Source: an uncultured bacterium
GTDB taxonomy: Bacteria; Bacteroidota; Ignavibacteria; Kapaibacteriales; UBA2268
Reading direction: 5' to 3'
DNA: 64,000 nt
NCBI GenBank assembly: GCA_942490685.1
Contig: CALNXW010000016.1
Location: 2,341,703-2,405,702, forward strand
In this document: positions 2,679 through 60,567 of the stretch, in pieces
Numbering within the stretch: position 1 is the first letter of the stretch
Layout: the number at the start of each line of letters is the position of its first letter
The notes under the pieces: model-generated
Seen by the model: the letters and a program-made list of their open reading frames with translations, nothing else
The model's database searches: none
What the model was told of the DNA's origin: nothing
Position numbers and translations under genes: made by a program

Positions 2679-3806
2679 GTGCTTCTTCTGCGGTTTGTTT
2701 TTTTATTTGTCTATTCTATTATGTATAAAACTCTAATCTATATTTTTATATTAGTTGCAACTTTCACAGCTACTCAAGCCAAAGACTCTTTATGCACCAT
2801 AGACAAACTATATTTCGGTCAAGTGCAATTTGATAATGACTCTTTGGAAAACAAGAGTTATGAGTTTTATATGCATCTGCCGGTAGGAATGGAAAGTACT
2901 TTCTATTTTAGGGAGTTAGCTGATAAAAAATACAGAAAGCTATTCCTCAATGTTGCTGACAACATAAGTACAAGTTCTTATTATAAGGATTCCATCACTA
3001 CTAGATTTCACTTCGGAGATGCAGAGATTACTCTGGATACAAATTATTCTCTTGAAATGCTATCGGCAGATATGAAAATAAGAAGAAAATTCTCCAAGGG
3101 AATAGGTTCTTATGATAGAGATGACAGCATCCGAATTATAATGATGTCTCAAGATCCTGAGGAGATTGCAGAAACTATCAAAGTGCTGGAAACAAATTAT
3201 ATAATCCCCAGACCACTTGACAGAATGAATGATTACTGGGCTACAGTAAGCGTACTTCCCGGAAGAAATGAGTTTAGTTTCCAAGGAAATTATTTTTCTT
3301 ATATGGGCAAGTTCGATTCAGAACCCTACCCCTTTTTAACATTTACTTTCCCTAATATATCAGTTGTGTATGACAAAAACGGCTTCAGAAGATATTCCTA
3401 TCAAGCAGCTGCGATTCCATTATTGGGTGGCATAGCTGCTCTAAGTCCTCTCATTGATCATGAATCTTCAGTGCTATTTTGGGCACCCGGTTTCATATTC
3501 GGCTTCTTGTCGGCAATATCAAATCCCGGTGTAGACTTCCATATTTCAGGAATAGACAATTATTTTTCGTTTTACTGCAAGTTAAACTGGGACATACTAA
3601 TAGTTGAAGTACCGGATATTAAAGATTATAAACAACCTGACAACTTCTTTGTCGAGCCAAAAATTGGCTTTAGATATTTGAATGTAAGAGGGTTTGGTTT
3701 TGAGGCATTTGCAGGTTATAGAATATGGAATTTCCCATTGACTTTAAGTCATGAACATGCATTTGCAGGAGTTGCAATAATAATTCCAATAGCAGACTTA
3801 GATTAG
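2679..3806 (+). CDS. Hypothetical secreted protein
   Basis: Long ORF with a hydrophobic N-terminus; the real start is probably at MYKTLIYIFILVATFTATQA. No recognisable motif. Confidence 0.35.
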   Translation: MLLLRFVFLFVYSIMYKTLIYIFILVATFTATQAKDSLCTIDKLYFGQVQFDNDSLENKSYEFYMHLPVGMESTFYFRELADKKYRKLFLNVADNISTSSYYKDSITTRFHFGDAEITLDTNYSLEMLSADMKIRRKFSKGIGSYDRDDSIRIIMMSQDPEEIAETIKVLETNYIIPRPLDRMNDYWATVSVLPGRNEFSFQGNYFSYMGKFDSEPYPFLTFTFPNISVVYDKNGFRRYSYQAAAIPLLGGIAALSPLIDHESSVLFWAPGFIFGFLSAISNPGVDFHISGIDNYFSFYCKLNWDILIVEVPDIKDYKQPDNFFVEPKIGFRYLNVRGFGFEAFAGYRIWNFPLTLSHEHAFAGVAIIIPIADLD

Positions 3807-5809: not shown

Positions 5810-6868
5810 ATGAAAAAACTAAGTTTAATATTGATTTTAGCTGCTGTGATTTTGGGAGTTTATGGGTGTAGTGAAGAATCTGAATCAAGAGATATACCAG
5901 CTAATTCACATAAATTAGAAATGTTAGGTGATAAAGAGCTTACGCTCTATTCCATTTATTACAATGATTATGATAACAACTATTATTTACTTGGATATGA
6001 CAGTGCAAATTATAAATATAATGTATACAAATCCGAAAATGATGGTAAAGATTTTGACTTATGTTTAACATTAGATGCTGACATTTACGAAAATCGACTA
6101 GTTCGACCTGATATTGTGATTGGTAAAGATGGATATGTTTTCCTTTCTACCTCAGGTATTTTGTTCAGATACCCTCCTGATTTATCCGAAAAAGTAGATT
6201 TAATAGAAACCGGAAAAAGTGCCGAAGGTTTAGAATCGCCTTACTTTAATCTACGCGGAGGTCATGGCTTAATTGCGGTAGATTCTGATGGAATCTTGTA
6301 TAAAGATTTAAAATATAAATCCACTGATAATGGACTAACATGGATTTTGGCAGCTGATGACAAAGACGATAAAGAAGAAAATGAAGATGATGGTTGGGCA
6401 GCTTCTTCTCCTCAATTACTTATAAAAAACAACATTTTACTATATTATTCCAGATCAATCCAACCTTCTTTTAAAATCAGTACTGACCAGGGTTATTCAT
6501 GGAGTGAAGAATTCCAGGTTAGTTCATCAATCGATTCTTTACACTGTGCTTTTTATGATATTCACAATATTACAAATGCTAACCCTAAACCTTTCATAAT
6601 TAAAAAACATGCTAAGGGCGATACAAAAGTAATCGGGATTGATAAATATGGCAATATCTTATCTGAAAAATTAGGGAGTAATATAGATTTTGACTATAAG
6701 TTTTACGATTCTAAATATACTTATATTTACTCTTCTAGTAATATGGGTGAAACTTGGAATTATCAATTTTATCTATTTGAGTATCAAAGATTTTTCACTC
6801 CATCTGGATACATATATTTTGAGACATGGGAACAAGGTATCAAACGCAATAAAACTCCACTTAAATAA
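5810..6868 (+). CDS. BNR/Asp-box lipoprotein, paralog 2
   Basis: Signal peptide plus lipobox MKKLSLILILAAVILGVYGCS. Asp-boxes at STDNGLTW, STDQGYSW and SSNMGETW. C-terminal GIKRNKTPLK. Confidence 0.65.
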   Translation: MKKLSLILILAAVILGVYGCSEESESRDIPANSHKLEMLGDKELTLYSIYYNDYDNNYYLLGYDSANYKYNVYKSENDGKDFDLCLTLDADIYENRLVRPDIVIGKDGYVFLSTSGILFRYPPDLSEKVDLIETGKSAEGLESPYFNLRGGHGLIAVDSDGILYKDLKYKSTDNGLTWILAADDKDDKEENEDDGWAASSPQLLIKNNILLYYSRSIQPSFKISTDQGYSWSEEFQVSSSIDSLHCAFYDIHNITNANPKPFIIKKHAKGDTKVIGIDKYGNILSEKLGSNIDFDYKFYDSKYTYIYSSSNMGETWNYQFYLFEYQRFFTPSGYIYFETWEQGIKRNKTPLK

Positions 6869-6880
6869 AGGAAAATTTGA

Positions 6881-7927
6881 ATGAAAAAACTAAGTTTAAT
6901 ATTGATTTTAGCTGCTGTGATTTTGGGAGTTTATGGGTGTAGTGACGACATCGATGGAATATCTCCTGTTAAAAGCGCAAATTCTGAAAAAGTAGAACAT
7001 GTGCTTAAACACTGTGCTTCGATAAGTATTATTGATTATAATAAAATGGAAGATACTTATTATATGATTGCCTTTGAATATAATTCTATGAAACTAATTT
7101 TATATACTTCTAAAACTGGTGAAGATTGGACACTTTTAAAAGATATGAGCAAAGATTACAAATATTTTGATCTTTTTAGAGGTGGAGAGGACATACAAAG
7201 CTTGAAGATGTCACAAAAAGGAAATCTATTTATCCAATACAAAAATACATTCTTCAGTGTTATGAATGATTTTGAAATATTAAACAATTTAAATTACTTA
7301 GCAAAGTATGAATACAAAGGCAATATTATTGTAGATTTTTCTGATATCAATATAGATGATGATGGCGTTATTTATTCAGGTTGCTATCTAAAATCAACTG
7401 ATGAAGGTTTTAATTGGACATTCATTGAAACTCCTTTCGAGAATGGTGATTATTTCTATAAAACTTATATCTACGGTAATATGATCATTGCTGATTTTAA
7501 AGATTGTATATGGAAAAGTGAAGATAAAGGCGAAACTTGGATTAAAGTGCTAGATAAAAAAACATCAGAGTCACCAACTGAGTTATATTATTACAAGCTA
7601 GAAAACATCCCTACAAATAAACAAGTCGAGTATAAAATTACCAGACCTGAAGAAGGCATATTCAATATTATAAAAATGCTCGACAATGGGCTTATAATTG
7701 CAAATTGGGAAGGATACAAAGAAAATGACTACTTCCCTGGTTATGCTAGTAATTGCAATATACACACTTCTACAGATAATGGCGAAACATGGAATTACGA
7801 ATTGAGCTTTATGGATACTTACACAAGTAGTTATAGTGGATCACCCGCAATTTATTATACAAAATCAGGTTACATTTATGCCAAAACAGGTGATGGTATA
7901 GTGCGCAATATAAAACCTATAAAATAG
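6881..7927 (+). CDS. BNR/Asp-box lipoprotein, paralog 3
   Basis: Its 5' 60 nt (signal peptide) are identical to paralog 2. Asp-boxes at STDEGFNW, SEDKGETW and STDNGETW. Confidence 0.65.
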   Translation: MKKLSLILILAAVILGVYGCSDDIDGISPVKSANSEKVEHVLKHCASISIIDYNKMEDTYYMIAFEYNSMKLILYTSKTGEDWTLLKDMSKDYKYFDLFRGGEDIQSLKMSQKGNLFIQYKNTFFSVMNDFEILNNLNYLAKYEYKGNIIVDFSDINIDDDGVIYSGCYLKSTDEGFNWTFIETPFENGDYFYKTYIYGNMIIADFKDCIWKSEDKGETWIKVLDKKTSESPTELYYYKLENIPTNKQVEYKITRPEEGIFNIIKMLDNGLIIANWEGYKENDYFPGYASNCNIHTSTDNGETWNYELSFMDTYTSSYSGSPAIYYTKSGYIYAKTGDGIVRNIKPIK

Positions 7928-50996: not shown

Positions 50997-51673
50997 ACAA
51001 GGAACTCCTAAACGTAATAAATGTATAAAAATGTCGTATATTGAGATCGTTTTAAATTCTGTCAGGGAAAGCGTATAATTCCCGTCCTCAAATTAACAAA
51101 ATTTTTTACAAATATCCACATCTTATATACAGAATCCGAATATTAAATAGGATTTCATTTACAAAGCTAAGTCTATTAAATTTGAGACATTTGAAAATAT
51201 TTCTATACTATCCTATAAACTCAATATAATTTGTTACTTCTTATATTTCGTATACTAATTTTAGTTTTATGTAATCTTATTTAAAATTCAAAATATTCGT
51301 AATGCTTATTTTAGAAGGATGTACATCTTCATCAGTGAAGAGATACTAGTTAAGGCAACCTATGTGGTGTGTTGAGAATAACCAGCATTTAGCTTGTAGT
51401 TATTTGTAGTGCTATCTGTAAAAATTACAAAACACACTCATAATAAAAATAGAGATAATTTATTCATTTTATTTTTCTATATTCGTTAACATAATAGATA
51501 TAATCATTCTTTTAAATTTTCTAGAATTTTCATTTGTATTCTTGAAAATTGAGTGTTTACACCCCACTGATAACGCGTTGAATATTAAGAGTACTTCTAT
51601 GTTTAGACAAATTCGAAATGAATAATGAGGTCAAAAAACAAACTAACTTCGTTCCTTTAGAATGTGTTTAAAA

Positions 51674-52303
51674 CTATTTTATTTCTAGGCTTCCACGATC
51701 CACTTTATCTTGTATCCTTGTTAAATGGAAGGACAGTTTAAATAGGAAAAGATACGCACCATAATCACTTAGAGTAAATAATTTTGAAGAATTTAATTTA
51801 TCTCTCGAATACTTCTTATTACTATGATTATTAATCCTATCCAGGAATACGATAGAATCATCTATTACATCTTCGAACTTTGGTAAATAAAATATTTGTG
51901 TAATTTCTTGTCTTTTTATTGATCCTACATGTTGTTTAATTGCTTCTTCTGGCTTCTCATTTTTTATTAGTATATCTTGATATTTCTTCAAGTTAAAGAT
52001 AGGTGCATAAATAATATGAGAAGGAAAGAATCGTTTGTTTGCTAAATCCATATCGCATGTGTTCGATATTACCATACAAGGAGCTTCTTTAATTGTAGTG
52101 TCAGGGAGATTAACAACTAGCAAATTGTTCAATCCATCACCTTGATATATGACATTATCCCCAACTAGATTCTTAGAATAAATTCTTTTGTCCATATTTT
52201 CAGGGAATCTTGACAATTCCTGATAAAGGATTCTCTCTGAATTCGAAGATAAATACTTCGGTAAATATAACTGTAAATCCTCTAAAGTCATATCAAATCC
52301 CAA
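51674..52303 (-). CDS. Hypothetical protein, third gene of an overlapping three-gene operon
   Basis: 209 aa, no recognisable motif. Its start overlaps the upstream gene by 16 nt. Confidence 0.5.
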   Translation of the reverse strand: MGFDMTLEDLQLYLPKYLSSNSERILYQELSRFPENMDKRIYSKNLVGDNVIYQGDGLNNLLVVNLPDTTIKEAPCMVISNTCDMDLANKRFFPSHIIYAPIFNLKKYQDILIKNEKPEEAIKQHVGSIKRQEITQIFYLPKFEDVIDDSIVFLDRINNHSNKKYSRDKLNSSKLFTLSDYGAYLFLFKLSFHLTRIQDKVDRGSLEIK

Positions 52304-52593
52304 AAATTGTCATCTACGATATCAATTATATCTGGATCAATATCTTTTGTATTGCTTATTAGTTTTTGAGCAAAAGTTACAATTGTCTCAGATTTATCAT
52401 GTTTAGAAAAAGCATCATAATCGTAAGTTTTAAAACCATTATCATTCCATTTGGAAATATCAGCCAATCTTTCTGCATTATAATCTGCATGTTGTGCCAC
52501 TTCTGTAATATTTGCTTCATACGGCAACGGAGTCACACATGTACTAGCAGTTACAGTAAGGAAAAACAAATTTTGTTTTGTTATTAACTCCAT
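52288..52593 (-). CDS. Hypothetical small acidic protein, middle gene of the three-gene operon
   Basis: 101 aa with an acidic C-terminus (DIDPDIIDIVDDNFWDLI). Its start is 2 nt from the upstream stop. Confidence 0.45.
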   Translation of the reverse strand: MELITKQNLFFLTVTASTCVTPLPYEANITEVAQHADYNAERLADISKWNDNGFKTYDYDAFSKHDKSETIVTFAQKLISNTKDIDPDIIDIVDDNFWDLI

Positions 52594-52594
52594 T

Positions 52595-53299
52595 TCAATA
52601 CTCCGGATTTAGTGTATTCAAAAAATCTTGATTCAATAGATTATAAAAGACAGATTTTTCAGTATCATGTATTAAAGAAATCAAGTTCTCTTTCTTAACA
52701 AAAAAATTCGATACATCATTAATTGAAATTGTATCGATGTCTATAAATGAACCCTGTTTTCCATCGTATTCCTGGTTGTTAGCAATTTGTAAAATGCTTT
52801 TAAATTGCTCTTCTACTATTTCAGTTTTAATCACAGTATTTTTATAATTAATTGGTTCCTGTTTTAGCGAAATATTCAAATCAATATTTTCAAAAATATT
52901 ATTTTCGAAAAAATTGATGTATCGAAGCCCTATTCTTTCAACATTATTAATTATGTTTAGAGTCTTTACTTCATCAATAATACTGATTATTTCGGAAAAT
53001 AGTGCATTCCAACCCAAATATTTAGGATAACAGCTTATACTTAAAACTTCTGGACCAATTTGAACAGCCAGTTGAGAGTTTGCAATTTTATAATGAGGTT
53101 TAAACCTAAAGTTAGGATCTTTTGCTCTTAGAGCCTCTGGAATCTGTAAAATTGGTAAATTTTCAGCATTCGGGAACTTGTCCTGTAAAACACCATATAT
53201 CATACCAAAAATTGCATTTGAAGGAATTCTTGATGTAAACCTTAGTTCAAAAAGAGCTTCTATAATTGGACATGGCTGTATTGATTTTGGATTGCCCAT
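52595..53299 (-). CDS. Hypothetical protein, first gene of the three-gene operon
   Basis: 234 aa. The N-terminal PIIEALFELRF is reminiscent, from memory only, of the uncharacterised TIGR04255 family. No catalytic motif recognised. Confidence 0.5.
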   Translation of the reverse strand: MGNPKSIQPCPIIEALFELRFTSRIPSNAIFGMIYGVLQDKFPNAENLPILQIPEALRAKDPNFRFKPHYKIANSQLAVQIGPEVLSISCYPKYLGWNALFSEIISIIDEVKTLNIINNVERIGLRYINFFENNIFENIDLNISLKQEPINYKNTVIKTEIVEEQFKSILQIANNQEYDGKQGSFIDIDTISINDVSNFFVKKENLISLIHDTEKSVFYNLLNQDFLNTLNPEY

Positions 53300-53452
53300 G
53301 ATAACCAGTTTTATTGTTTATAAATACTTTCTTGTAACAATATACGAATTAGTATAATAAATCGTACAAAATGGGGATAAATAGTACCAAATCTTTAAGG
53401 CATAGTACGATTTAGATTAAAAAAAGGTTCATAAACAAACCAAAAGTATAAA

Positions 53453-53746
53453 ATGTTTTTTTCCACAAAGCATCCTGAATTTTGTAGTTCTTTTCTTTCC
53501 TTTTCTGAGCGTTATCACACAATTCAAAAGATATTTCAAACTTATCTTGGTAAAATTCAAGTATATCAAAAATTTAAAATATTTGATATGGGTATGATTA
53601 TCTATGTAAATGGAAAAGAAAGGTTTGTTGTCACAGAAGTTGAAAGATCCATCGACATATCAAATTTGGAATCAGGTGTTTATTTCTTGATAATAGTTGA
53701 TAATCTAGGAAATCCTTATCGTTCCAAATTTATAGTAGAAAGATAA
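53453..53746 (+). pseudogene. Remnant of a T9SS-CTD protein gene (C-terminal sorting domain only)
   Basis: The last ~50 aa (IYVNGKERFVVTEVERSIDISNLESGVYFLIIVDNLGNPYRSKFIV) match the T9SS CTD. The upstream part is unrelated, non-secreted-looking sequence. Confidence 0.5.
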
Positions 53747-53790
53747 ATTTATCCACTGAACGGGATAGACTAACTAAAATACAGCAAAAA

Positions 53791-54492: not shown

Positions 54493-54769
54493 GTCTTGAA
54501 ATCCGATTTATTCAACAAAAGAGTATATAATTGTATTGACGAATATCGTCCTGAAAGAGTATTCAGTAAAAATTATGCCAATTTAAAAAAGTATTATTGC
54601 AATATTTTCATAGTGCTATTCTGCAAACATATAATAATGTCAATACAAATCGTTAATTTGGCTTTTTTTGCATATTTTCGAGCATTTTCGAGTGGATAAG
54701 TATTTTTCAAAAATTCTAAAAACTTTTTTTCTGATAAAGTGGTGATTTGTGTTATTTGCATACATCGAT

Positions 54770-54840: not shown

Positions 54841-55290
54841 ATGGCTTTTTTTAAAGGACAAGAACTTTACTCTCTTGACAGTAAGGGTAGGGTCAATATC
54901 CCAGCTAAAATGCGAAAAGGGATATCGCCCGAGGCTAATGGCACCTTTACCGTTACACGTGGTAAGGATAAGTGTATAGAAGCTTATCCTCTCGACGAAT
55001 GGAAGAAGTATGAAGAGAGGTTCGAATCCCTTAACCAATACGACCCAAAAAACAGACGATTCCTAAGGATGATTCTGATGTGGTCTGAAGAGGTTAATCT
55101 GGATAGCCAACAAAGGATTTCTGTTCCTAAAAAACTTTTAGAATATGCAGGAATAGATAAAAAAGTCCTTATTTGCGGGATGGGTGACCATATAGAATTG
55201 TGGGATCCTGAAGAATTTGAGAAATATTTAGATAGCGAAGAAATAAGCTATGAAGAAGTTTCCGGTACTGTGATGGGAGAAACATTTTAA
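54841..55290 (+). CDS. mraZ: Transcriptional regulator MraZ
   Basis: 149 aa. Duplicated MraZ/SpoVT-AbrB fold with the characteristic LDSKGRVNIPAKMR. Confidence 0.9.
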   Translation: MAFFKGQELYSLDSKGRVNIPAKMRKGISPEANGTFTVTRGKDKCIEAYPLDEWKKYEERFESLNQYDPKNRRFLRMILMWSEEVNLDSQQRISVPKKLLEYAGIDKKVLICGMGDHIELWDPEEFEKYLDSEEISYEEVSGTVMGETF

Positions 55291-56300
55291 TGGGGAAAAA
55301 GAAAACATCACAGCACAAGTCAAGCAAAACTAGAATTGACAAAAGCATGGCGGTAGAGTACAATTATCACTTACCGGTTATGCTTAAGGAAACAATAGAT
55401 TTTCTGGTTACAGACACAAATGGTATTTATATAGACGGAACGCTCGGAGGTGGTGGGCATGCAGCCGAGATATTGTCAAAGTTAGATTCTGGGGGGAATT
55501 TAAGAGCCTTTGACAAACACATCACAGCTATCGAGCATTGCAATGCAAGATTTAGTGATGAACTCAAAAGAGGAACCTCGAGTCGTCTCCGTTTATATAA
55601 TTACTGCTATTCTAAGGTCTGCACCTTCGATGAAATTAGGGGGCAAATATCAGGTCTCTTGTTGGATCTTGGCGTTTCCTCAAAGCAGTTAGACACAGAC
55701 TCTCTCGGACTTAGTTACAGAGTAGATTCCAAACTCGATATGAGATTTGGAGATACTGGTTTGACGGCAGGGGACCTGTTATCTACCATTACAGAACCCG
55801 AACTTATCGACATTCTCCGAAATTACGGCGAAGAGCCTATGGCGAAACGAATCGCCCACAGCATCATCCAAAGAAGAAATTCCAACACAATGAACACTAC
55901 TTTTGATTTGCGCGAAGCTGTCGAAGAACGAGTGCCTCAATCGCTGCATTTTAAGGCCTTGTCACGTGTTTTTCAAGCTATTCGAATTGCGGTAAATCAA
56001 GAGCTGAAAGTGCTCGAAGATACGCTCAAAGGCATTATTCCTATGCTCGCTCCGGGTGGAAGGATTGTAATACTCTCCTACCATTCACTGGAAGACAGGA
56101 TTGTAAAAAATATTTTTAAAGAGCATTCCAAAAAGCCTAAAGTGAACAGGCAACATCCAGATTTTGACAAAGTTAAGCACACTCCGCCTCTAACTTTGCT
56201 CACACCTAAACCCATGCTCCCAAGTGAGCATGAAATCCAAATAAATCCTCGTGCACGCAGCGCTAAGCTCAGAGTAGCTGAAAAGACTGTAGTGGAGTAG
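55290..56300 (+). CDS. rsmH: 16S rRNA (cytosine1402-N4)-methyltransferase RsmH
   Basis: HLPVMLKETIDFL...GIYIDGTLGGGGHA is the SAM-dependent MTase N-terminal signature. The real start may be M20 (MAVEYNYHLPVML). No ftsL or ftsI follow. Confidence 0.9.
   Translation: MGKKKTSQHKSSKTRIDKSMAVEYNYHLPVMLKETIDFLVTDTNGIYIDGTLGGGGHAAEILSKLDSGGNLRAFDKHITAIEHCNARFSDELKRGTSSRLRLYNYCYSKVCTFDEIRGQISGLLLDLGVSSKQLDTDSLGLSYRVDSKLDMRFGDTGLTAGDLLSTITEPELIDILRNYGEEPMAKRIAHSIIQRRNSNTMNTTFDLREAVEERVPQSLHFKALSRVFQAIRIAVNQELKVLEDTLKGIIPMLAPGGRIVILSYHSLEDRIVKNIFKEHSKKPKVNRQHPDFDKVKHTPPLTLLTPKPMLPSEHEIQINPRARSAKLRVAEKTVVE
56272..56294 (+). repeat. Left copy of the 21-23 bp direct repeat flanking the three-Cys/TcmP cassette (the last codons of rsmH)
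   Basis: AGTAGCTGAAAAGACTGTAGTG recurs at 58421-58443 as AGTAGCTGAAAAGACTGTGGTG, one mismatch. Confidence 0.8.
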
Positions 56301-56308
56301 GATCCTAA

Positions 56309-57058
56309 TTATAAATAAAAACTATTATATATGCTTGAAGGAAATTCCTGCCATACCTGGCCATCAATTTCTTTTCCATTGGACTTTTTATTTCGCTTAA
56401 TTTTATCAGCTCCCCAAGTACCCCATTGTTTGAAGAAGAATGCTACATTTTTCTTCTCGCATTGTTGTTTAATATTTAGTACCCATTCTTTATCCATTGG
56501 TCTGGCTTGTACCCCACTTTCACCACCAACAATGACCCAATCTATTCCTTCAAGATTTAACTCTCCTAAATCCTCCAATAGAGGTTCCACTGAAAGAAAT
56601 TTTACTGATGCTTTCATATCTCTAAGATAATCGATTCTTGGTATGCCTTCTTTTCTATTTTCGACAGTTACTCCTAGCCAAATATTTTTGGGAATACTTC
56701 TTTGAGTTAAGTATTCTGCCATAGCTTTAGCACGCTTAGTTAGAATCTGATAAGTATGTTGAGGAGTGTTTTCTATTACATCAAAAATTTGATCCAGATA
56801 TTCTTTTGGCATTTTTTCGTGGAAAATATCACTCATTGAGTTCACGAAATATACTGTAGGCTTCTTTCTTTTATAAGGATCTAATAATCTACTTGGTACA
56901 AGTTGAAACTCAAAACCATTTTCATATCCTTCGACATTCATTGCTTTAAGCCTTCTAGCCATAGTTTCTGCATAGCAGTTTTTGCATCCTGAACTCACTT
57001 TTGTGCATCCGGCTGACGGATTCCAAGTTTGTTCAGTCCATTCTATTTTATGAGCCAT
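56309..57058 (-). CDS. Phage Gp37/Gp68-family (DUF5131-like) three-Cys-motif protein
   Basis: The probable start M29 (MAHKIEWTEQTWNPSAGCTKVSSGCKNCYAE) gives ~250 aa. W-N-P followed by C-x6-C-x2-C matches the family signature as I recall it. The ORF track extends the start to 57142. Confidence 0.6.
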   Translation of the reverse strand: MAHKIEWTEQTWNPSAGCTKVSSGCKNCYAETMARRLKAMNVEGYENGFEFQLVPSRLLDPYKRKKPTVYFVNSMSDIFHEKMPKEYLDQIFDVIENTPQHTYQILTKRAKAMAEYLTQRSIPKNIWLGVTVENRKEGIPRIDYLRDMKASVKFLSVEPLLEDLGELNLEGIDWVIVGGESGVQARPMDKEWVLNIKQQCEKKNVAFFFKQWGTWGADKIKRNKKSNGKEIDGQVWQEFPSSIYNSFYL

Positions 57059-57177
57059 GATTCTTTCCCCCCCAGGTGTGAATTTTGAATCTATTTTGGC
57101 AAAATTATCAATATTATTTTTAAAGGCGATTGAAAAACACAATATTGCAAGTCTTTTTAAAACAATAAAGTTGTATT

Positions 57178-58305
57178 TTATTTTTTTTCTTGTAATATAA
57201 ATCGTACCTTTCTTTTATCATTACCAATATAATTCCCCTTATTAGAGCCTTTATCTAATGATATGACTTCCAATCTTTTTTCATTATTGAAAGTTTTTAA
57301 AATCTCATTAGTATGTTTTGGCAACATATCATTTTTTAATCCAAATTCAAAAAGATCATGATTAGTTACTATCTCTGTATTTGTCAAATATTCTTCAAGT
57401 TTGTCTTTATATGTAATTTTTTTTAAACTGAATAATTGCGTTGTTTTATTTTGATTATATCCTTTGCCTTCTTCATTGTCCATTTTCCATTTTGCTTCAA
57501 GCATAGCTTTATGCCCCTGTTTATTTGGAGAAAAGAACATCAAACAATAGAATTTATTTGTTTCCTTTTCAATGTGAAAGTAAGAAATCCAACGATTGGG
57601 AAATTTTGATTTGAAGCGATTACTTAAGCTTTCTATGAACACTAATGCTGACGTATGTTGTTTTAATTTCTCTGGAAAAAGATAATCAATCAATTTCTTT
57701 AATGGCAAAAAACCTTTGTTTTCTTTTTCTTGAACGGTGTATGCAAACCTATACATTTGATCTATTGGTAGAAAAAGCAAAAGCTCGGCTTTATCATTAT
57801 TTAAAACTTTTTCTAGAAAATCTATAGTTATATCTTTGTATCCAAATGGATCTATAAATAAAAGTGCACGTTCATTTTTTTTCAATCCATATAGACTAGA
57901 CAATACTTTAGGAATTAATTCTGTAAACTCTCGCCTTGTAAACTTATATTCTACTTTAGGATTTTCAAATCTTGAAACACAAAAATTTTGGACACGTTCA
58001 ATTTTCCATTTGTCTTCTTCTATTGTAGACTTTTGACTATCATTAAAATGGAAATAAATATTAGGTATAGATTTAAATTTTTCTAAATGTTCCTTTACAA
58101 CATTAACAGCTATCAATGGACTACCTTCTTGGCTATCTTCATAAATACCTTCACCTGCGAATAAATCATATAAATACACATTCTTAATATTTTTCGCATA
58201 ATCTACGATATTTAGATATACAGATAAATAATATTTATAAAGCTCGACTTTAGCAACTGAATGTGACGGTAGTATTGCAGAATCTCCTTTCTTTTTCACT
58301 TTCAT
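57178..58305 (-). CDS. Putative three-Cys-motif partner protein (TcmP-like), co-oriented immediately upstream of the Gp37/Gp68-like gene
   Basis: 375 aa, 36-bp gap to the downstream gene. Size and genomic pairing fit the TcmP (TIGR04474) / DUF5131 pair. Sequence-level membership could not be verified without an HMM. Confidence 0.4.
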   Translation of the reverse strand: MKVKKKGDSAILPSHSVAKVELYKYYLSVYLNIVDYAKNIKNVYLYDLFAGEGIYEDSQEGSPLIAVNVVKEHLEKFKSIPNIYFHFNDSQKSTIEEDKWKIERVQNFCVSRFENPKVEYKFTRREFTELIPKVLSSLYGLKKNERALLFIDPFGYKDITIDFLEKVLNNDKAELLLFLPIDQMYRFAYTVQEKENKGFLPLKKLIDYLFPEKLKQHTSALVFIESLSNRFKSKFPNRWISYFHIEKETNKFYCLMFFSPNKQGHKAMLEAKWKMDNEEGKGYNQNKTTQLFSLKKITYKDKLEEYLTNTEIVTNHDLFEFGLKNDMLPKHTNEILKTFNNEKRLEVISLDKGSNKGNYIGNDKRKVRFILQEKK

Positions 58306-58420
58306 CTAACACCCCTCATTATCTCAATATTAATTATTACACGATACAATACAATATAATATTATTATTTATTAAATTCTAAGCAATAATCCTTATTATT
58401 ATAATTTTTTTATTTATCAC

Positions 58421-58443
58421 TAGTAGCTGAAAAGACTGTGGTG
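58421..58443 (+). repeat. Right copy of the rsmH-3'-end direct repeat
   Basis: See the 56272..56294 entry. Confidence 0.8.
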
Positions 58444-58455
58444 CTGTGGTATGCT

Positions 58456-58487
58456 TACCGCAAGCTAAAGCATGCGGTTGCACTGTA
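58456..58487 (+). repeat. REP-like palindromic element, left copy 1
   Basis: TACCGCAAGCTAAAGCATGCGGTTGCACTGTA. Its reverse complement recurs at 59257-59285. Confidence 0.65.
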
Positions 58488-58643
58488 GATCATTATCCAC
58501 TTTGTTTTTGGTTTTATTAGTATATATCTATTTAAATATCAGTAGCAATAAGCATTGAGACACGTGCCGCAAACTACACTTTCCTACGACGATACTTTGG
58601 ATAAACTTTTCGCTTTGTTTGCGGCTATCGAGCTTGTCGAGAT

Positions 58644-58670
58644 GCAGTGAAATTGTGCGGTTGCACTGTA
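58644..58670 (+). repeat. REP-like element, left copy 2 (shares the core TGCGGTTGCACTGTA)
   Basis: GCAGTGAAATTGTGCGGTTGCACTGTA, internally palindromic (CAGTG...CACTG). Confidence 0.55.
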
Positions 58671-58710
58671 AATACAATTTATGTTTATTTGAATCATCTT
58701 ATATTCTAGT

Positions 58711-59241
58711 TTGAAGAAACTATATTACTTCTATTCTCCAATTGTTTTTGATATTATTAATATGGAACTAAATAATAAGATTTGGCATGTAACTTGGGTT
58801 ACTCGTAATAGTCGTATCAGTGAAAGAATGATACTGGCGCGAGTAAAGCTTGAGAATCCAGTCACACTGACTGATGAAATGCGTAATATTGTTGCAGAAA
58901 GTATCAAATTAAAGATTAAAGAAGAATCAATAAAGATTTATGCTCTTAATGTTCTAATGGATCATGTTCATATTATAATTCAATCGTCTGAAACTGAACT
59001 TGAAGAAATTGTGCGTAAGTTAAAAGGCTATTCCTCTTATCAAATATCCAAAACTTTGGGTTACACATCAAAAGGTCAAGGCAAACAAACTAAAATCTGG
59101 GCTACCAGCTTCAGCAAAACTTTAATCAGAGATAAAAAGCATCTTTTAGAATCAATCAACTACATTAAAAATAACCACCTAAAACATAATGTTACTCCAT
59201 GTAAAGCACTCTTGTTTTTCTCACAGAGTCCAATAAAGTAA
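58711..59241 (+). CDS. HUH-family Y1 transposase (IS200/IS605 TnpA-like; REP-associated tyrosine transposase candidate)
   Basis: HuH motif HVHIIIQ. Conserved KGYSSYQIS and a C-terminal catalytic Tyr context (SINYIKNNH). The real start is probably M18 (MELNNKIWHVTW), giving ~159 aa. Confidence 0.75.
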   Translation: MKKLYYFYSPIVFDIINMELNNKIWHVTWVTRNSRISERMILARVKLENPVTLTDEMRNIVAESIKLKIKEESIKIYALNVLMDHVHIIIQSSETELEEIVRKLKGYSSYQISKTLGYTSKGQGKQTKIWATSFSKTLIRDKKHLLESINYIKNNHLKHNVTPCKALLFFSQSPIK

Positions 59242-59256
59242 TATTAAAATATATAA

Positions 59257-59285
59257 GAGTGCAACCGCATGCTTTAGCTTGCGGA
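59257..59285 (-). repeat. REP-like element, right copy (inverted)
   Basis: GAGTGCAACCGCATGCTTTAGCTTGCGGA is the reverse complement of left copy 1, 27 of 28 positions. Confidence 0.65.
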
Positions 59286-59694
59286 GCTTTATCAAGAGCT
59301 TCATGTCTCAGATCTGTACTTAGGTGAAACTTGACGCTATTTACTGTTCCCTATAGCTCAAAGTTTCGAACTGGTCAATATTCCCAAGCATAGCGAAAAG
59401 TTAATCTTAGGCTCAGTCTAAGAAAAGTGCAGCTTACAAAGCTTTGAATAACCTAAAAAATCAGATGACATAAATATTAATTATTCACCACAGTGCAATC
59501 CCTGAGTATATATATTTGATATATAATAACTAGATTCTAACAGTCTCATACAATCATCATTATGAAAGCTATTGACTTGAGTGGACTTACACCGTATCTT
59601 TGTATATATAAACTCATGACAAGAAGAATTTTGGCCAAGGTTCGAAGTATAGTTTGGAAGAAGAAAAATATATCAAAAATATAGGAAAAAAAAG

Positions 59695-60567
59695 ATGATT
59701 GATCTAAACACAGTTAAGGTTCTATACAAATATAGAACTTTTGAGAGCAAATTTGACAGACGTCTACTTTGGCTTAACGAATTATTTTTTGCCAAGAAGC
59801 ATATGCTGAATGATCCTTTCGACTTAGGACTTGAGCCTGATTATTCTCAGACAACAAAAGATCAATGGTGTAAAGTGGCATTAAGAAGTATCAATTCAAA
59901 TCAAGTGTTATCAGATAACCAGAGAGTAAAACTTCTAAAAGAAGAAATAATAAAAATTGATAATGGGACGAGTGATTTGCAAAAGAATCACAAAGAAGCA
60001 ATTTTTGGAAATGCACGAAATGAAAATAAGGAATTCAAAGAAGGAAAGATAAACAAAATGTGCATTCTTTCTCTTGTTGCTGACAACCCAACTAATTCTC
60101 TAATGTGGGCACATTATTCATCCTCACACCAAGGTTTTTGTATAGGATATAACGCCACTGAGCTTTTTAATTATCTTACAACATTGAAAGACCAACATGA
60201 ATTTACTCAATTAGCTGTAAAGTATAAAGACTATTATCCTAAAGTAAATCCATTAACTAGCACAGAATTTTATCTAGACCTACTCTACACAAAATCTATT
60301 GAATGGGATTATGAAGATGAAGTGAGGATAATCAACGAAACCACACATCCGAACCATAATAATGGATTTGCAATTTACTATCCAAATAAACTTGTTCGTG
60401 ATATAACCTTAGGCTTATATTGTTCGGAAGAGAACAGAAACATGGTCGTTAATCGTATTAATGAAATGAATTCACTCCACAATCTTTCTATAAAATTGTA
60501 TCAAATAACAAAAGAAGATTATTCCTACGAGTTTAAAAGAAAAGACATTTCGGAACTCTTAAGTTAA
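59695..60567 (+). CDS. Hypothetical protein, DUF2971-like
   Basis: 290 aa. The N-terminal LYKYRTFES...LNELFFAKKHMLNDPFD resembles the conserved N-terminal block of DUF2971 proteins, from memory only. Confidence 0.4.
   Translation: MIDLNTVKVLYKYRTFESKFDRRLLWLNELFFAKKHMLNDPFDLGLEPDYSQTTKDQWCKVALRSINSNQVLSDNQRVKLLKEEIIKIDNGTSDLQKNHKEAIFGNARNENKEFKEGKINKMCILSLVADNPTNSLMWAHYSSSHQGFCIGYNATELFNYLTTLKDQHEFTQLAVKYKDYYPKVNPLTSTEFYLDLLYTKSIEWDYEDEVRIINETTHPNHNNGFAIYYPNKLVRDITLGLYCSEENRNMVVNRINEMNSLHNLSIKLYQITKEDYSYEFKRKDISELLS

Follow-up and report, generated by a model that had tools for sequence, protein, structure and literature searches.

In the last codons of rsmH, the gene for the 16S rRNA m4C1402 methyltransferase, a Candidatus Kapaibacterium genome carries an insert of 2,127 bp with two genes, one for a DUF5131 (Gp37/Gp68) three-Cys protein and one for its partner TcmP, and this insert is flanked by two copies of the rsmH tail. 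We analysed it within a stretch of 64,000 nucleotides (the window, to which all positions refer unless a relative is named). The insert at 56295-58421 is probably a small non-autonomous islet, flanked by att-like repeats and carrying a cargo that would act on nucleic acid. The features of the locus are as follows (names beginning with L denote the relatives and other loci compared):

55290..56300, plus strand: rsmH, the target gene, 336 amino acids (TIGR00006, E 5.8e-85; PF01795, E 1.2e-88).
56273..56294, plus strand: proximal copy (P) of a 22-nt repeat, the native rsmH tail (repeat search and junction alignment).
56295..58421, no strand assigned: the inserted islet, 2,127 bp, guanine plus cytosine (GC) content 0.295, absent from L005, L002 and L003 and at the same position in L004/L049 and L065.
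56309..57058, minus strand: gene for the DUF5131/Gp37-Gp68 three-Cys protein, 249 amino acids from its ATG (PF07505, E 1.8e-108).
57059..57177, minus strand: spacer between tcmP and the DUF5131 gene, 119 nt, inside the inner segment that was recently exchanged, 94-97% identical between lineages.
57178..58305, minus strand: tcmP, for the three-Cys-motif partner, 375 amino acids (TIGR04474, 140.5 bits against a cutoff of 53).
58306..58421, minus strand: AT-rich region upstream of tcmP, the right end of the islet, with host-level divergence from L049 (80% identity plus indels).
58422..58443, plus strand: distal copy (D) of the same repeat, duplicating the rsmH tail in non-coding DNA (repeat search and junction alignment).

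A preliminary description of this DNA had noticed that the rsmH tail recurs with one mismatch. That is correct, but both copies had been placed one base too early: the direct repeat is 22 nt long, with AGTAGCTGAAAAGACTGTAGTG at 56273-56294 and AGTAGCTGAAAAGACTGTGGTG at 58422-58443. P makes up the final 7-8 codons of rsmH, and the last codon of the gene and its stop (GAG TAG, 56295-56300) come from the cassette side of the junction, which leaves rsmH intact. With up to 3 mismatches allowed, just these 2 matches were found in the window, and none in 100 shuffles, ruling out a dispersed repeat or a chance origin. The open reading frame (ORF) list bears out the original count of exactly two co-oriented minus-strand genes, about 2.1 kb, between the copies, and the comparison of GC content that had been suggested gave 0.295 for the cassette against 0.428 for rsmH and 0.343 for the whole window. 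Domain profile searches detected no recombinase or transposase domain in either protein, in line with the earlier remark that the segment contains no integrase or transposase. No tRNA or Rfam element was found in or beside the islet, and a tRNA or known RNA was therefore ruled out as the insertion target. We also discarded a pair of candidate terminal inverted repeats (56305-56321 and 58407-58423, 17 nt, 88%) as a chance product of AT-rich DNA, since their placement is asymmetric and they are not kept in L049.

The closest relatives provide both filled and empty versions of the site. They come from a scan with the RsmH protein of one genome per species, which also assigns the window to Candidatus Kapaibacterium; L049 and L065 are Logan contigs. 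In the genomes, the sequence after rsmH reads:

L005 (RsmH 96% identical in amino acids): cassette absent; then a truncated IS200-like gene, an aminotransferase gene and a peptidase gene.
L002 (RsmH 89% identical): cassette absent; then a small ORF with a lipoprotein-like N-terminus, and BamD.
L003 (RsmH 86% identical): cassette absent; then a module with a REP-associated tyrosine transposase (RAYT).
L004 (RsmH 90% identical): DUF5131 gene at the same place; the contig stops within the cassette.

The rsmH tail is present once in L005, L002 and L003, and two copies occur in carriers only. L049 matches L004 over their overlap and holds the entire cassette, both junctions and its own duplicated tail, while L065 is a third carrier sequence, 94% identical to the window, with the cassette at the same position. 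Positions 1-4326 of L049 align with 11310-6983 of L002 (93.5% identity), and 6449-7355 with 7006-6100 of L002 (96.1%). L002 is the sister genome of L049, and its site is cleanly empty. The two alignments overlap on L002, so that L049 flanks its cassette on both sides with a 24-nt stretch of the rsmH tail that L002 has once. The target-duplicating insertion proposed from the window, with an empty site in relatives, is thus borne out. Failure of the profile searches, lack of any empty site and a dispersed repeat had been named beforehand as grounds for refuting it; the profiles matched, empty sites exist and the repeat is not dispersed. A further claim, that the cassette sits where ftsL and ftsI would follow rsmH, did not survive: none of the cassette-free relatives has ftsL or ftsI there, and therefore the cassette did not displace them. 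Metagenome scans with TcmP and with RsmH gave no additional close relatives, and a viral scan with TcmP found nothing.

The alignment of the tails of 8 junction sequences located the ends of the islet almost to the nucleotide. In the two carriers with both ends known, the window and L049, P is followed by the cassette-borne last codon or codons of rsmH with the stop (GAG TAG in the window, (G)GA TAG in L049) and then by the DUF5131 stop, which lies 8 nt from the rsmH stop in the window and 4 nt from it in L049. The equivalent cassette end precedes D, as ...TATTTATCACT in the window and ...TATTTATCTGG in L049. After D, L049 continues with the native stop and native downstream DNA, as in L002; in the window the RAYT module takes the place of the native sequence. 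The islet boundaries in the two lineages match within 1-2 nt. Of the features of a site-specific integrative element, then, the locus shows the target-duplicating direct repeats and the unoccupied single-copy site, and it has no integrase or recombinase of its own. With no recombinase inside the cassette, the islet is at most a non-autonomous element of the type of cis-mobilizable elements (CIMEs).

How old the islet is, and whether it has moved, was addressed by comparing the window with the L049/L004 lineage, as synonymous divergence (pS) or as identity of non-coding DNA:

lexA: pS 0.69.
mraZ: pS 0.55.
rsmH, 3' half: pS 0.71.
DUF5131 gene, C-terminal half (left cassette end): pS 0.75.
Region upstream of tcmP (right cassette end): 80% identity plus 24 gap columns.
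lexA-mraZ spacer, for comparison: about 82% identity.
DUF5131 gene, N-terminal third: pS 0.33.
tcmP: pS 0.17.

Host genes overall have pS values of 0.55-0.71. Since both cassette ends have diverged at this level, their age is roughly that of the separation of the two host lineages. Sliding-window identity steps sharply near 56740, and the inner segment reaches 94-95% identity between genomes that share about 83% in their host genes: some 1.55 kb of the interior was exchanged between the lineages much more recently. Two other interpretations of these figures were abandoned. The C-terminal half of the DUF5131 gene had seemed more diverged than the host, as if from independent donors, and this was withdrawn on the local controls (0.71 in the 3' half of rsmH and 0.69 in lexA, against 0.75). 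An unusual conservation of the tcmP-DUF5131 spacer (93.6%) was rejected because the spacer lies within the exchanged segment, where tcmP is itself 95% identical. Separately, the 5' half of rsmH (55290-55790) has a pS of only 0.24 from the L004 lineage, against 0.71 in its 3' half; this part may also have been exchanged between lineages, or may be under constraint at the nucleotide level.

The distal repeat copies follow the rsmH tail of their own lineage. D of the window is identical at 22/22 positions to the rsmH tails of L005, the closest empty-site genome, and of L065 (its P copy), while D of L049 carries all three substitutions of the rsmH tail of its own lineage (AAG ACT GTG to AAA AAT GTA), so that within each genome the lineage-specific tail substitutions are common to P and D. 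A neutral 22-nt relic as old as the cassette ends should have drifted, and these copies did not. They have been re-made or corrected in each lineage. Repeated excision and re-insertion could have done this, as could re-acquisition into an empty site or gene conversion, and each of the three entails that recombination continues at the repeats. This bears on a simpler history, in which one ancient illegitimate insertion became immobile and was inherited vertically, with two chance deletions (in the L005 and L002 lineages), occasional conversion of D and no dedicated system. Such a history would account for islet ends that diverge like the host (pS 0.75 against 0.71; 80% identity upstream of tcmP against 82% in the lexA-mraZ spacer), for the lack of a recombinase and for a repeat without dyad symmetry, and with five or six genomes parsimony does not distinguish two gains from two losses. 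We nevertheless regard it as unlikely: at a pS of about 0.7 a neutral relic would not be expected to agree at 22/22 positions with the L005 and L065 tails, nor to show in L049 all three substitutions derived in its own lineage, and converting a 22-nt tract over 2.1 kb, in each of two lineages, would already amount to repeated recombination at the repeats.

A second history needs no site-specific enzyme either. In it the islet spreads by ordinary homologous recombination after DNA uptake, and D is a portable short homology arm: with rsmH on its left and 22 nt of rsmH tail on its right, the islet could be copied into any related rsmH tail. Recombination between lineages is evident in the inner 1.55 kb (94-95% identity against about 83% in the host), similarity is likewise unusually high in the 5' half of rsmH (pS 0.24), and the carriers differ downstream of D (the RAYT module in the window, a lipoprotein gene in L049), as expected if the tail alone suffices. 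On the other hand, P would then be of the donor type, and in each genome it is of the local type; the recent exchange tract stops within the cassette and not at a repeat; and 22 nt is close to the lower limit for RecA-type exchange. We therefore judge spread by uptake to be possible but rather doubtful.

The neighbouring REP-associated tyrosine (HUH/Y1) transposase, encoded at 58711-59241, was also weighed as the agent that moved the cassette. Its gene begins 270 nt past D and is the sole transposase-type gene nearby. This is hardly credible as an explanation: L049 has the cassette with the same boundaries and no such gene nearby, L003 has a RAYT module 3' of rsmH and no cassette, and the transposase with its 27-nt inverted repeats (58458-59284) lies entirely outside the repeat-bounded segment, contrary to what is expected of an IS200/IS605-type vehicle. 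Moreover, Y1 transposases of the IS200/IS605 type are not known to produce a target duplication.

We thus favor an islet for which the two repeat copies would serve as att-like recombination sites, with gain, precise loss and re-insertion all proceeding through them. Catalysis would be supplied in trans by a recombinase encoded elsewhere or, as the main alternative, by short-homology recombination of the host. The predicted circle junction would read ...TTTATCACT + 22-mer + GAGTAGGATCC... Several observations weigh against this interpretation. No recombinase was identified in the 64 kb covered, out of a genome of 3.28 Mb; inspection of the 22-mer did not reveal the dyad symmetry typical of a tyrosine-recombinase core; and neither an excised circle nor an empty site in the same strain was seen, since two further samples of it both have the islet. 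Host-level divergence at both ends gives no hint that the islet was recently transferred as a whole, and long residence combined with gene conversion of D could look the same. Finally, the distant TcmP-DUF5131 pairs in L051, L052, L054, L057 and L059 have no flanking repeats.

Elements of this kind are known. CIME-type elements lie between direct repeats, some tens of bp long, in which the 3' terminus of a housekeeping gene is duplicated; they supply codons that keep the gene intact, lack an integrase and are polymorphic in their presence. We take the islet to resemble these CIMEs and other integrase-less, att-flanked islets, such as CIME19258 and the ICESt1 family, found in Streptococcus thermophilus at the 3' end of fda. 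In contrast to CIMEs, the islet is just 2.1 kb long, its repeat has no obvious recombinase core symmetry, and a cognate element that carries an integrase and targets rsmH was not found. XerCD-dependent elements (integrative mobile elements exploiting Xer, IMEX) are recombinase-less and flanked by a duplicated recombination site, as is the islet; unlike theirs, its target is a gene tail and not dif, and in a comparison by eye the 22-mer did not resemble known dif sequences.

Both cargo proteins belong to the families that the preliminary description had named, as shown by the PF07505 and TIGR04474 matches given above. For DUF5131 the listed ORF of 277 amino acids begins at an upstream TTG, and the ATG start gives 249. 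The protein matches PF07505 with 362 bits (gathering threshold 28.9) over profile positions 3-243 of 243, and also PDC-M30B (E 4.5e-117) and phrog_2045. The W-N-P and C-x6-C-x2-C motifs first read from the sequence are present and invariant in the family, the Cys motif having been checked in 24 aligned homologues of 42-87% identity. The canonical radical-SAM motif CX3CX2C does not occur in DUF5131, whose motif is C-x6-C-x2-C; the family is filed as a radical-SAM subgroup in SFLD/RadicalSAM.org (PMC9477430). The predicted structure is poor (predicted local distance difference test score, pLDDT, of 60, from an alignment too shallow in diversity), and its fold matches are generically TIM-barrel or radical-SAM-like. 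DUF5131 is also related to TIGR04471, the partner family of which, TIGR04470, is PA0069/SplB-like. DUF5131 ranks among the most conserved proteins of its class. Thousands of database proteins are 75-80% identical to the window DUF5131, whereas their partners are only 22-44% identical to the window TcmP, a contrast that a fixed enzyme working with a fast-evolving specificity partner would explain.

In the model of TcmP, the fold is that of a class I S-adenosylmethionine (SAM) methyltransferase, with RlmJ nearest, followed by a C-terminal GMT-like winged helix. The features of that class appear to be in place: a Rossmann-like fold in the model, the glycine-rich motif I DLFAGEG (D47-L-F-A-G-E-G53) and the acidic/aromatic motif IV DPxGY (D152-P-x-G-Y156), both with invariant residues. 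TcmP also matches PDC-M30A (E 1.7e-88), and it resembles an amino-methyltransferase of the RlmJ type, with a winged helix that would bind DNA. RlmJ, the 23S rRNA m6A2030 methyltransferase (PDB 6qe5), and the family member 2oo3 come nearest to the predicted fold, at an identity of only 13-14%; unlike RlmJ, TcmP has the extra winged helix and an obligate DUF5131 neighbour. The PF07505 neighbour that defines TIGR04474 is adjacent to tcmP on the same strand, across the 119-nt spacer. A sequence search of the PDB with DUF5131 and TcmP gave no matches. In the second sample of the strain, L050 (Logan ERR9669565, equivalent to 55779-59643 of the window and 99.9% identical), tcmP is split into ORFs of 150 and 211 amino acids by deletions at window positions 57067, 57181, 57772 and 57875. 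That tcmP is a pseudogene in L050 was rejected, since the four differences are single-base homopolymer deletions and probably assembly errors.

The two genes would encode a two-enzyme module acting on nucleic acid, in which TcmP, judging from its model, would supply target recognition and possibly methyl transfer, and DUF5131, as an iron-sulfur (Fe-S) enzyme of the radical-SAM superfamily, would do the chemistry. Most likely the module serves in phage defence or DNA modification. Both proteins match the component models of PADLOC system PDC-M30 over their full length (PDC-M41 being the other listed candidate), with the genes adjacent and co-oriented as in that system; PDC systems are predicted from defence-island context rather than validated. 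The pair here also agrees with other TIGR04474/PF07505 pairs in the partner-then-DUF5131 order and the invariant three-Cys motif, and differs in its 119-nt spacer, 5/6 distant pairs examined being nearly abutting. The initial suggestion of a mobile accessory module for nucleic-acid modification or defence fits the PDC-M30 match, the TcmP methyltransferase fold and the homologues in type I restriction-modification (R-M) operons described below. The assumed novelty of the cargo fared less well. Full-text literature searches found no functional study of the TcmP or DUF5131 families, only annotation lines, as had been thought, and no experimental report of phage protection by the PDC-M30 pair; but PADLOC had already listed the pair among its candidate defence systems, and RadicalSAM.org had already taken in DUF5131 as a subgroup, which makes the cargo less novel than first assumed.

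Type I R-M operons are known to host accessory genes, for example prrC and the rlo genes. The closest DUF5131 subfamily (a single protein, P0239, 76% identical, in the Bacteroidales loci L066-L073) is present in hundreds of contigs, and 8/8 places sampled lie inside a type I R-M operon; with their TcmP-like partners these relatives fit the pattern of R-M-embedded accessory genes, whereas the window pair is not linked to R-M. In seven of the eight loci, hsdS, the TcmP-like gene, the DUF5131 gene, a 23S_rRNA_IVP gene and hsdR follow in this order; in the eighth, L068, a gene for a 676-aa HATPase protein takes the place of the TcmP-like partner and hsdS. The overall layout is hsdM, (GIY-YIG), ORF6N, hsdS, TcmP-like, DUF5131, 23S_rRNA_IVP four-helix protein, hsdR. 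Motif IV is not retained in the distant R-M-embedded partner of L069 (DQYGF). Elsewhere, the pairs of L061 and L063 have HEPN, AAA_15, HicB or Gp49 neighbours, and among 178 phage records with DUF5131 a TcmP-like "methyltransferase" is close by in several Gordonia phages.

Not all contexts point to defence, and the cargo half of our interpretation is weakened by the lack of functional studies noted above and by the distant pairs, of which three in six have an SOS/repair-like rather than a defence-like setting. A role in the SOS response or DNA damage is therefore the main alternative, and a serious one. The pairs of L051 and L052 come immediately after a PA0069-family radical SAM gene (NF033668, E 7e-141), with LigT nearby in both and a UmuD-like S24 protein in L052; that of L054 follows an HTH-S24 repressor gene and lies beside imuB and dnaE2. 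The link is echoed by TIGR04471, the DUF5131 kin with a PA0069/SplB-like partner family. PA0069 is described as an SOS gene in Pseudomonas aeruginosa in a preprint that cites Cirz 2006 for it (bioRxiv 10.1101/2022.03.14.484287). Yet the nearest DUF5131 subfamily sits in R-M operons at all sampled places, the L061 and L063 neighbours and the PADLOC listing speak for defence, and inspection by eye upstream of tcmP revealed no CTG-N10-CAG box like that of the lexA promoter. The closeness of lexA to the islet is no evidence for an SOS role, because lexA adjoins mraZ-rsmH in all relatives, with or without the cassette. Overall, an SOS-linked damage or repair module that is not anti-phage is possible, though we think a different role the better bet. 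Next to the cassette, at a distance of 1.2 kb, a DUF2971 protein encoded at 59695-60567 (plus strand) matches the PADLOC single-gene candidate PDC-S31 (E 1.6e-43) and phrog_1762, adding a second candidate defence gene to the locus.

All fetched loci were also scanned for repeats flanking the DUF5131 gene. In four IMG/VR phage contigs it is tightly bracketed by duplicated local sequence:

L086, 5863-5991 and 6713-6841: duplication of about 106-140 nt, the 3' end of the upstream gene.
L136, 5914-5985 and 6785-6856: duplication of about 75 nt.
L140, 5039-5057 and 5854-5872: duplication of 19 nt.
L144, about 2186-2463 and 3463-3740: duplication of more than 130 nt.

The duplications, of 19 to more than 200 nt, are the end or the start of a neighbouring gene, and that of L086 reaches the start codon, giving DUF5131 and the next gene the same upstream sequence. 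By one criterion applied to the same contigs, 3/59 DUF5131 genes are bracketed, against 1-3/445 other ORFs (Fisher p 0.006-0.04, depending on tolerance). A frequency about ten times that of other ORFs is suggestive only; other phage genes show the same bracketing pattern, and the distant chromosomal pairs show none. It could mean that DUF5131 units, alone or partnered, spread by an insertion route, recombinase-free or so far undescribed, in which DUF5131 or TcmP may take part and a variable length of the local target (19 to more than 200 nt) is duplicated. We find this improbable; if true, it would be a new kind of minimal mobile gene cassette. Many IMG/VR loci (among L074-L153, for example L093, L101, L102 and L121) have DUF5131 about 0.7-1.6 kb from the contig end, which would fit an accessory gene at a prophage border.

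Around rsmH, the RAYT gene of the window (58711-59241, plus strand; module 58444-59284) matches PF01797 (E 1.6e-12) and NF047646 (72.6 bits, just below the cutoff). It is flanked by perfect 27-nt inverted repeats (58458-58484 and 59258-59284), with a hairpin in each, and the module contains an additional copy of the half-site TGCGGTTGCACTGTARAT, found at 58473 and 58656. The RAYT module 3' of rsmH in L003 is 82% identical to it, and L005 has a truncated Y1_Tnp ORF after rsmH, so that the region after rsmH looks like a recurrent landing place for RAYT/Y1 elements. A second low-GC island (51337-53787, GC 0.287), in which no flanking direct repeats were found, lies between a pyruvate:ferredoxin oxidoreductase gene and lexA and encodes a TIGR04255-family protein (52595-53299), a 101-aa ORF and a 209-aa phrog_4575 protein; at its position L002 and L004 have about 260 bp, and L005 other genes. 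In the lexA-mraZ spacer, at about 54550-54567, the sequence CTGAAAGAGTATTCAGTA, of the form CTG-N10-CAG, is invariant in five Kapaibacterium genomes and could serve this lineage as its LexA box; directly upstream of mraZ there is another long block that does not vary.

The islet is real but fairly ordinary, as its cargo families were already flagged as a defence candidate and its mode of residence is of a known kind, and current views are not overturned. It shows in a clean natural case how a housekeeping gene can harbour a very small cargo of the defence type as a unit that can be removed: filled sites are matched by empty ones, the junctions are exact, and there is evidence of recombination at the repeats as well as within the cassette. 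Its value is that of a well-defined test case, which sharpens the tests that can be made of a widespread, uncharacterised gene pair that recurs in type I R-M operons, near SOS genes and in phages.

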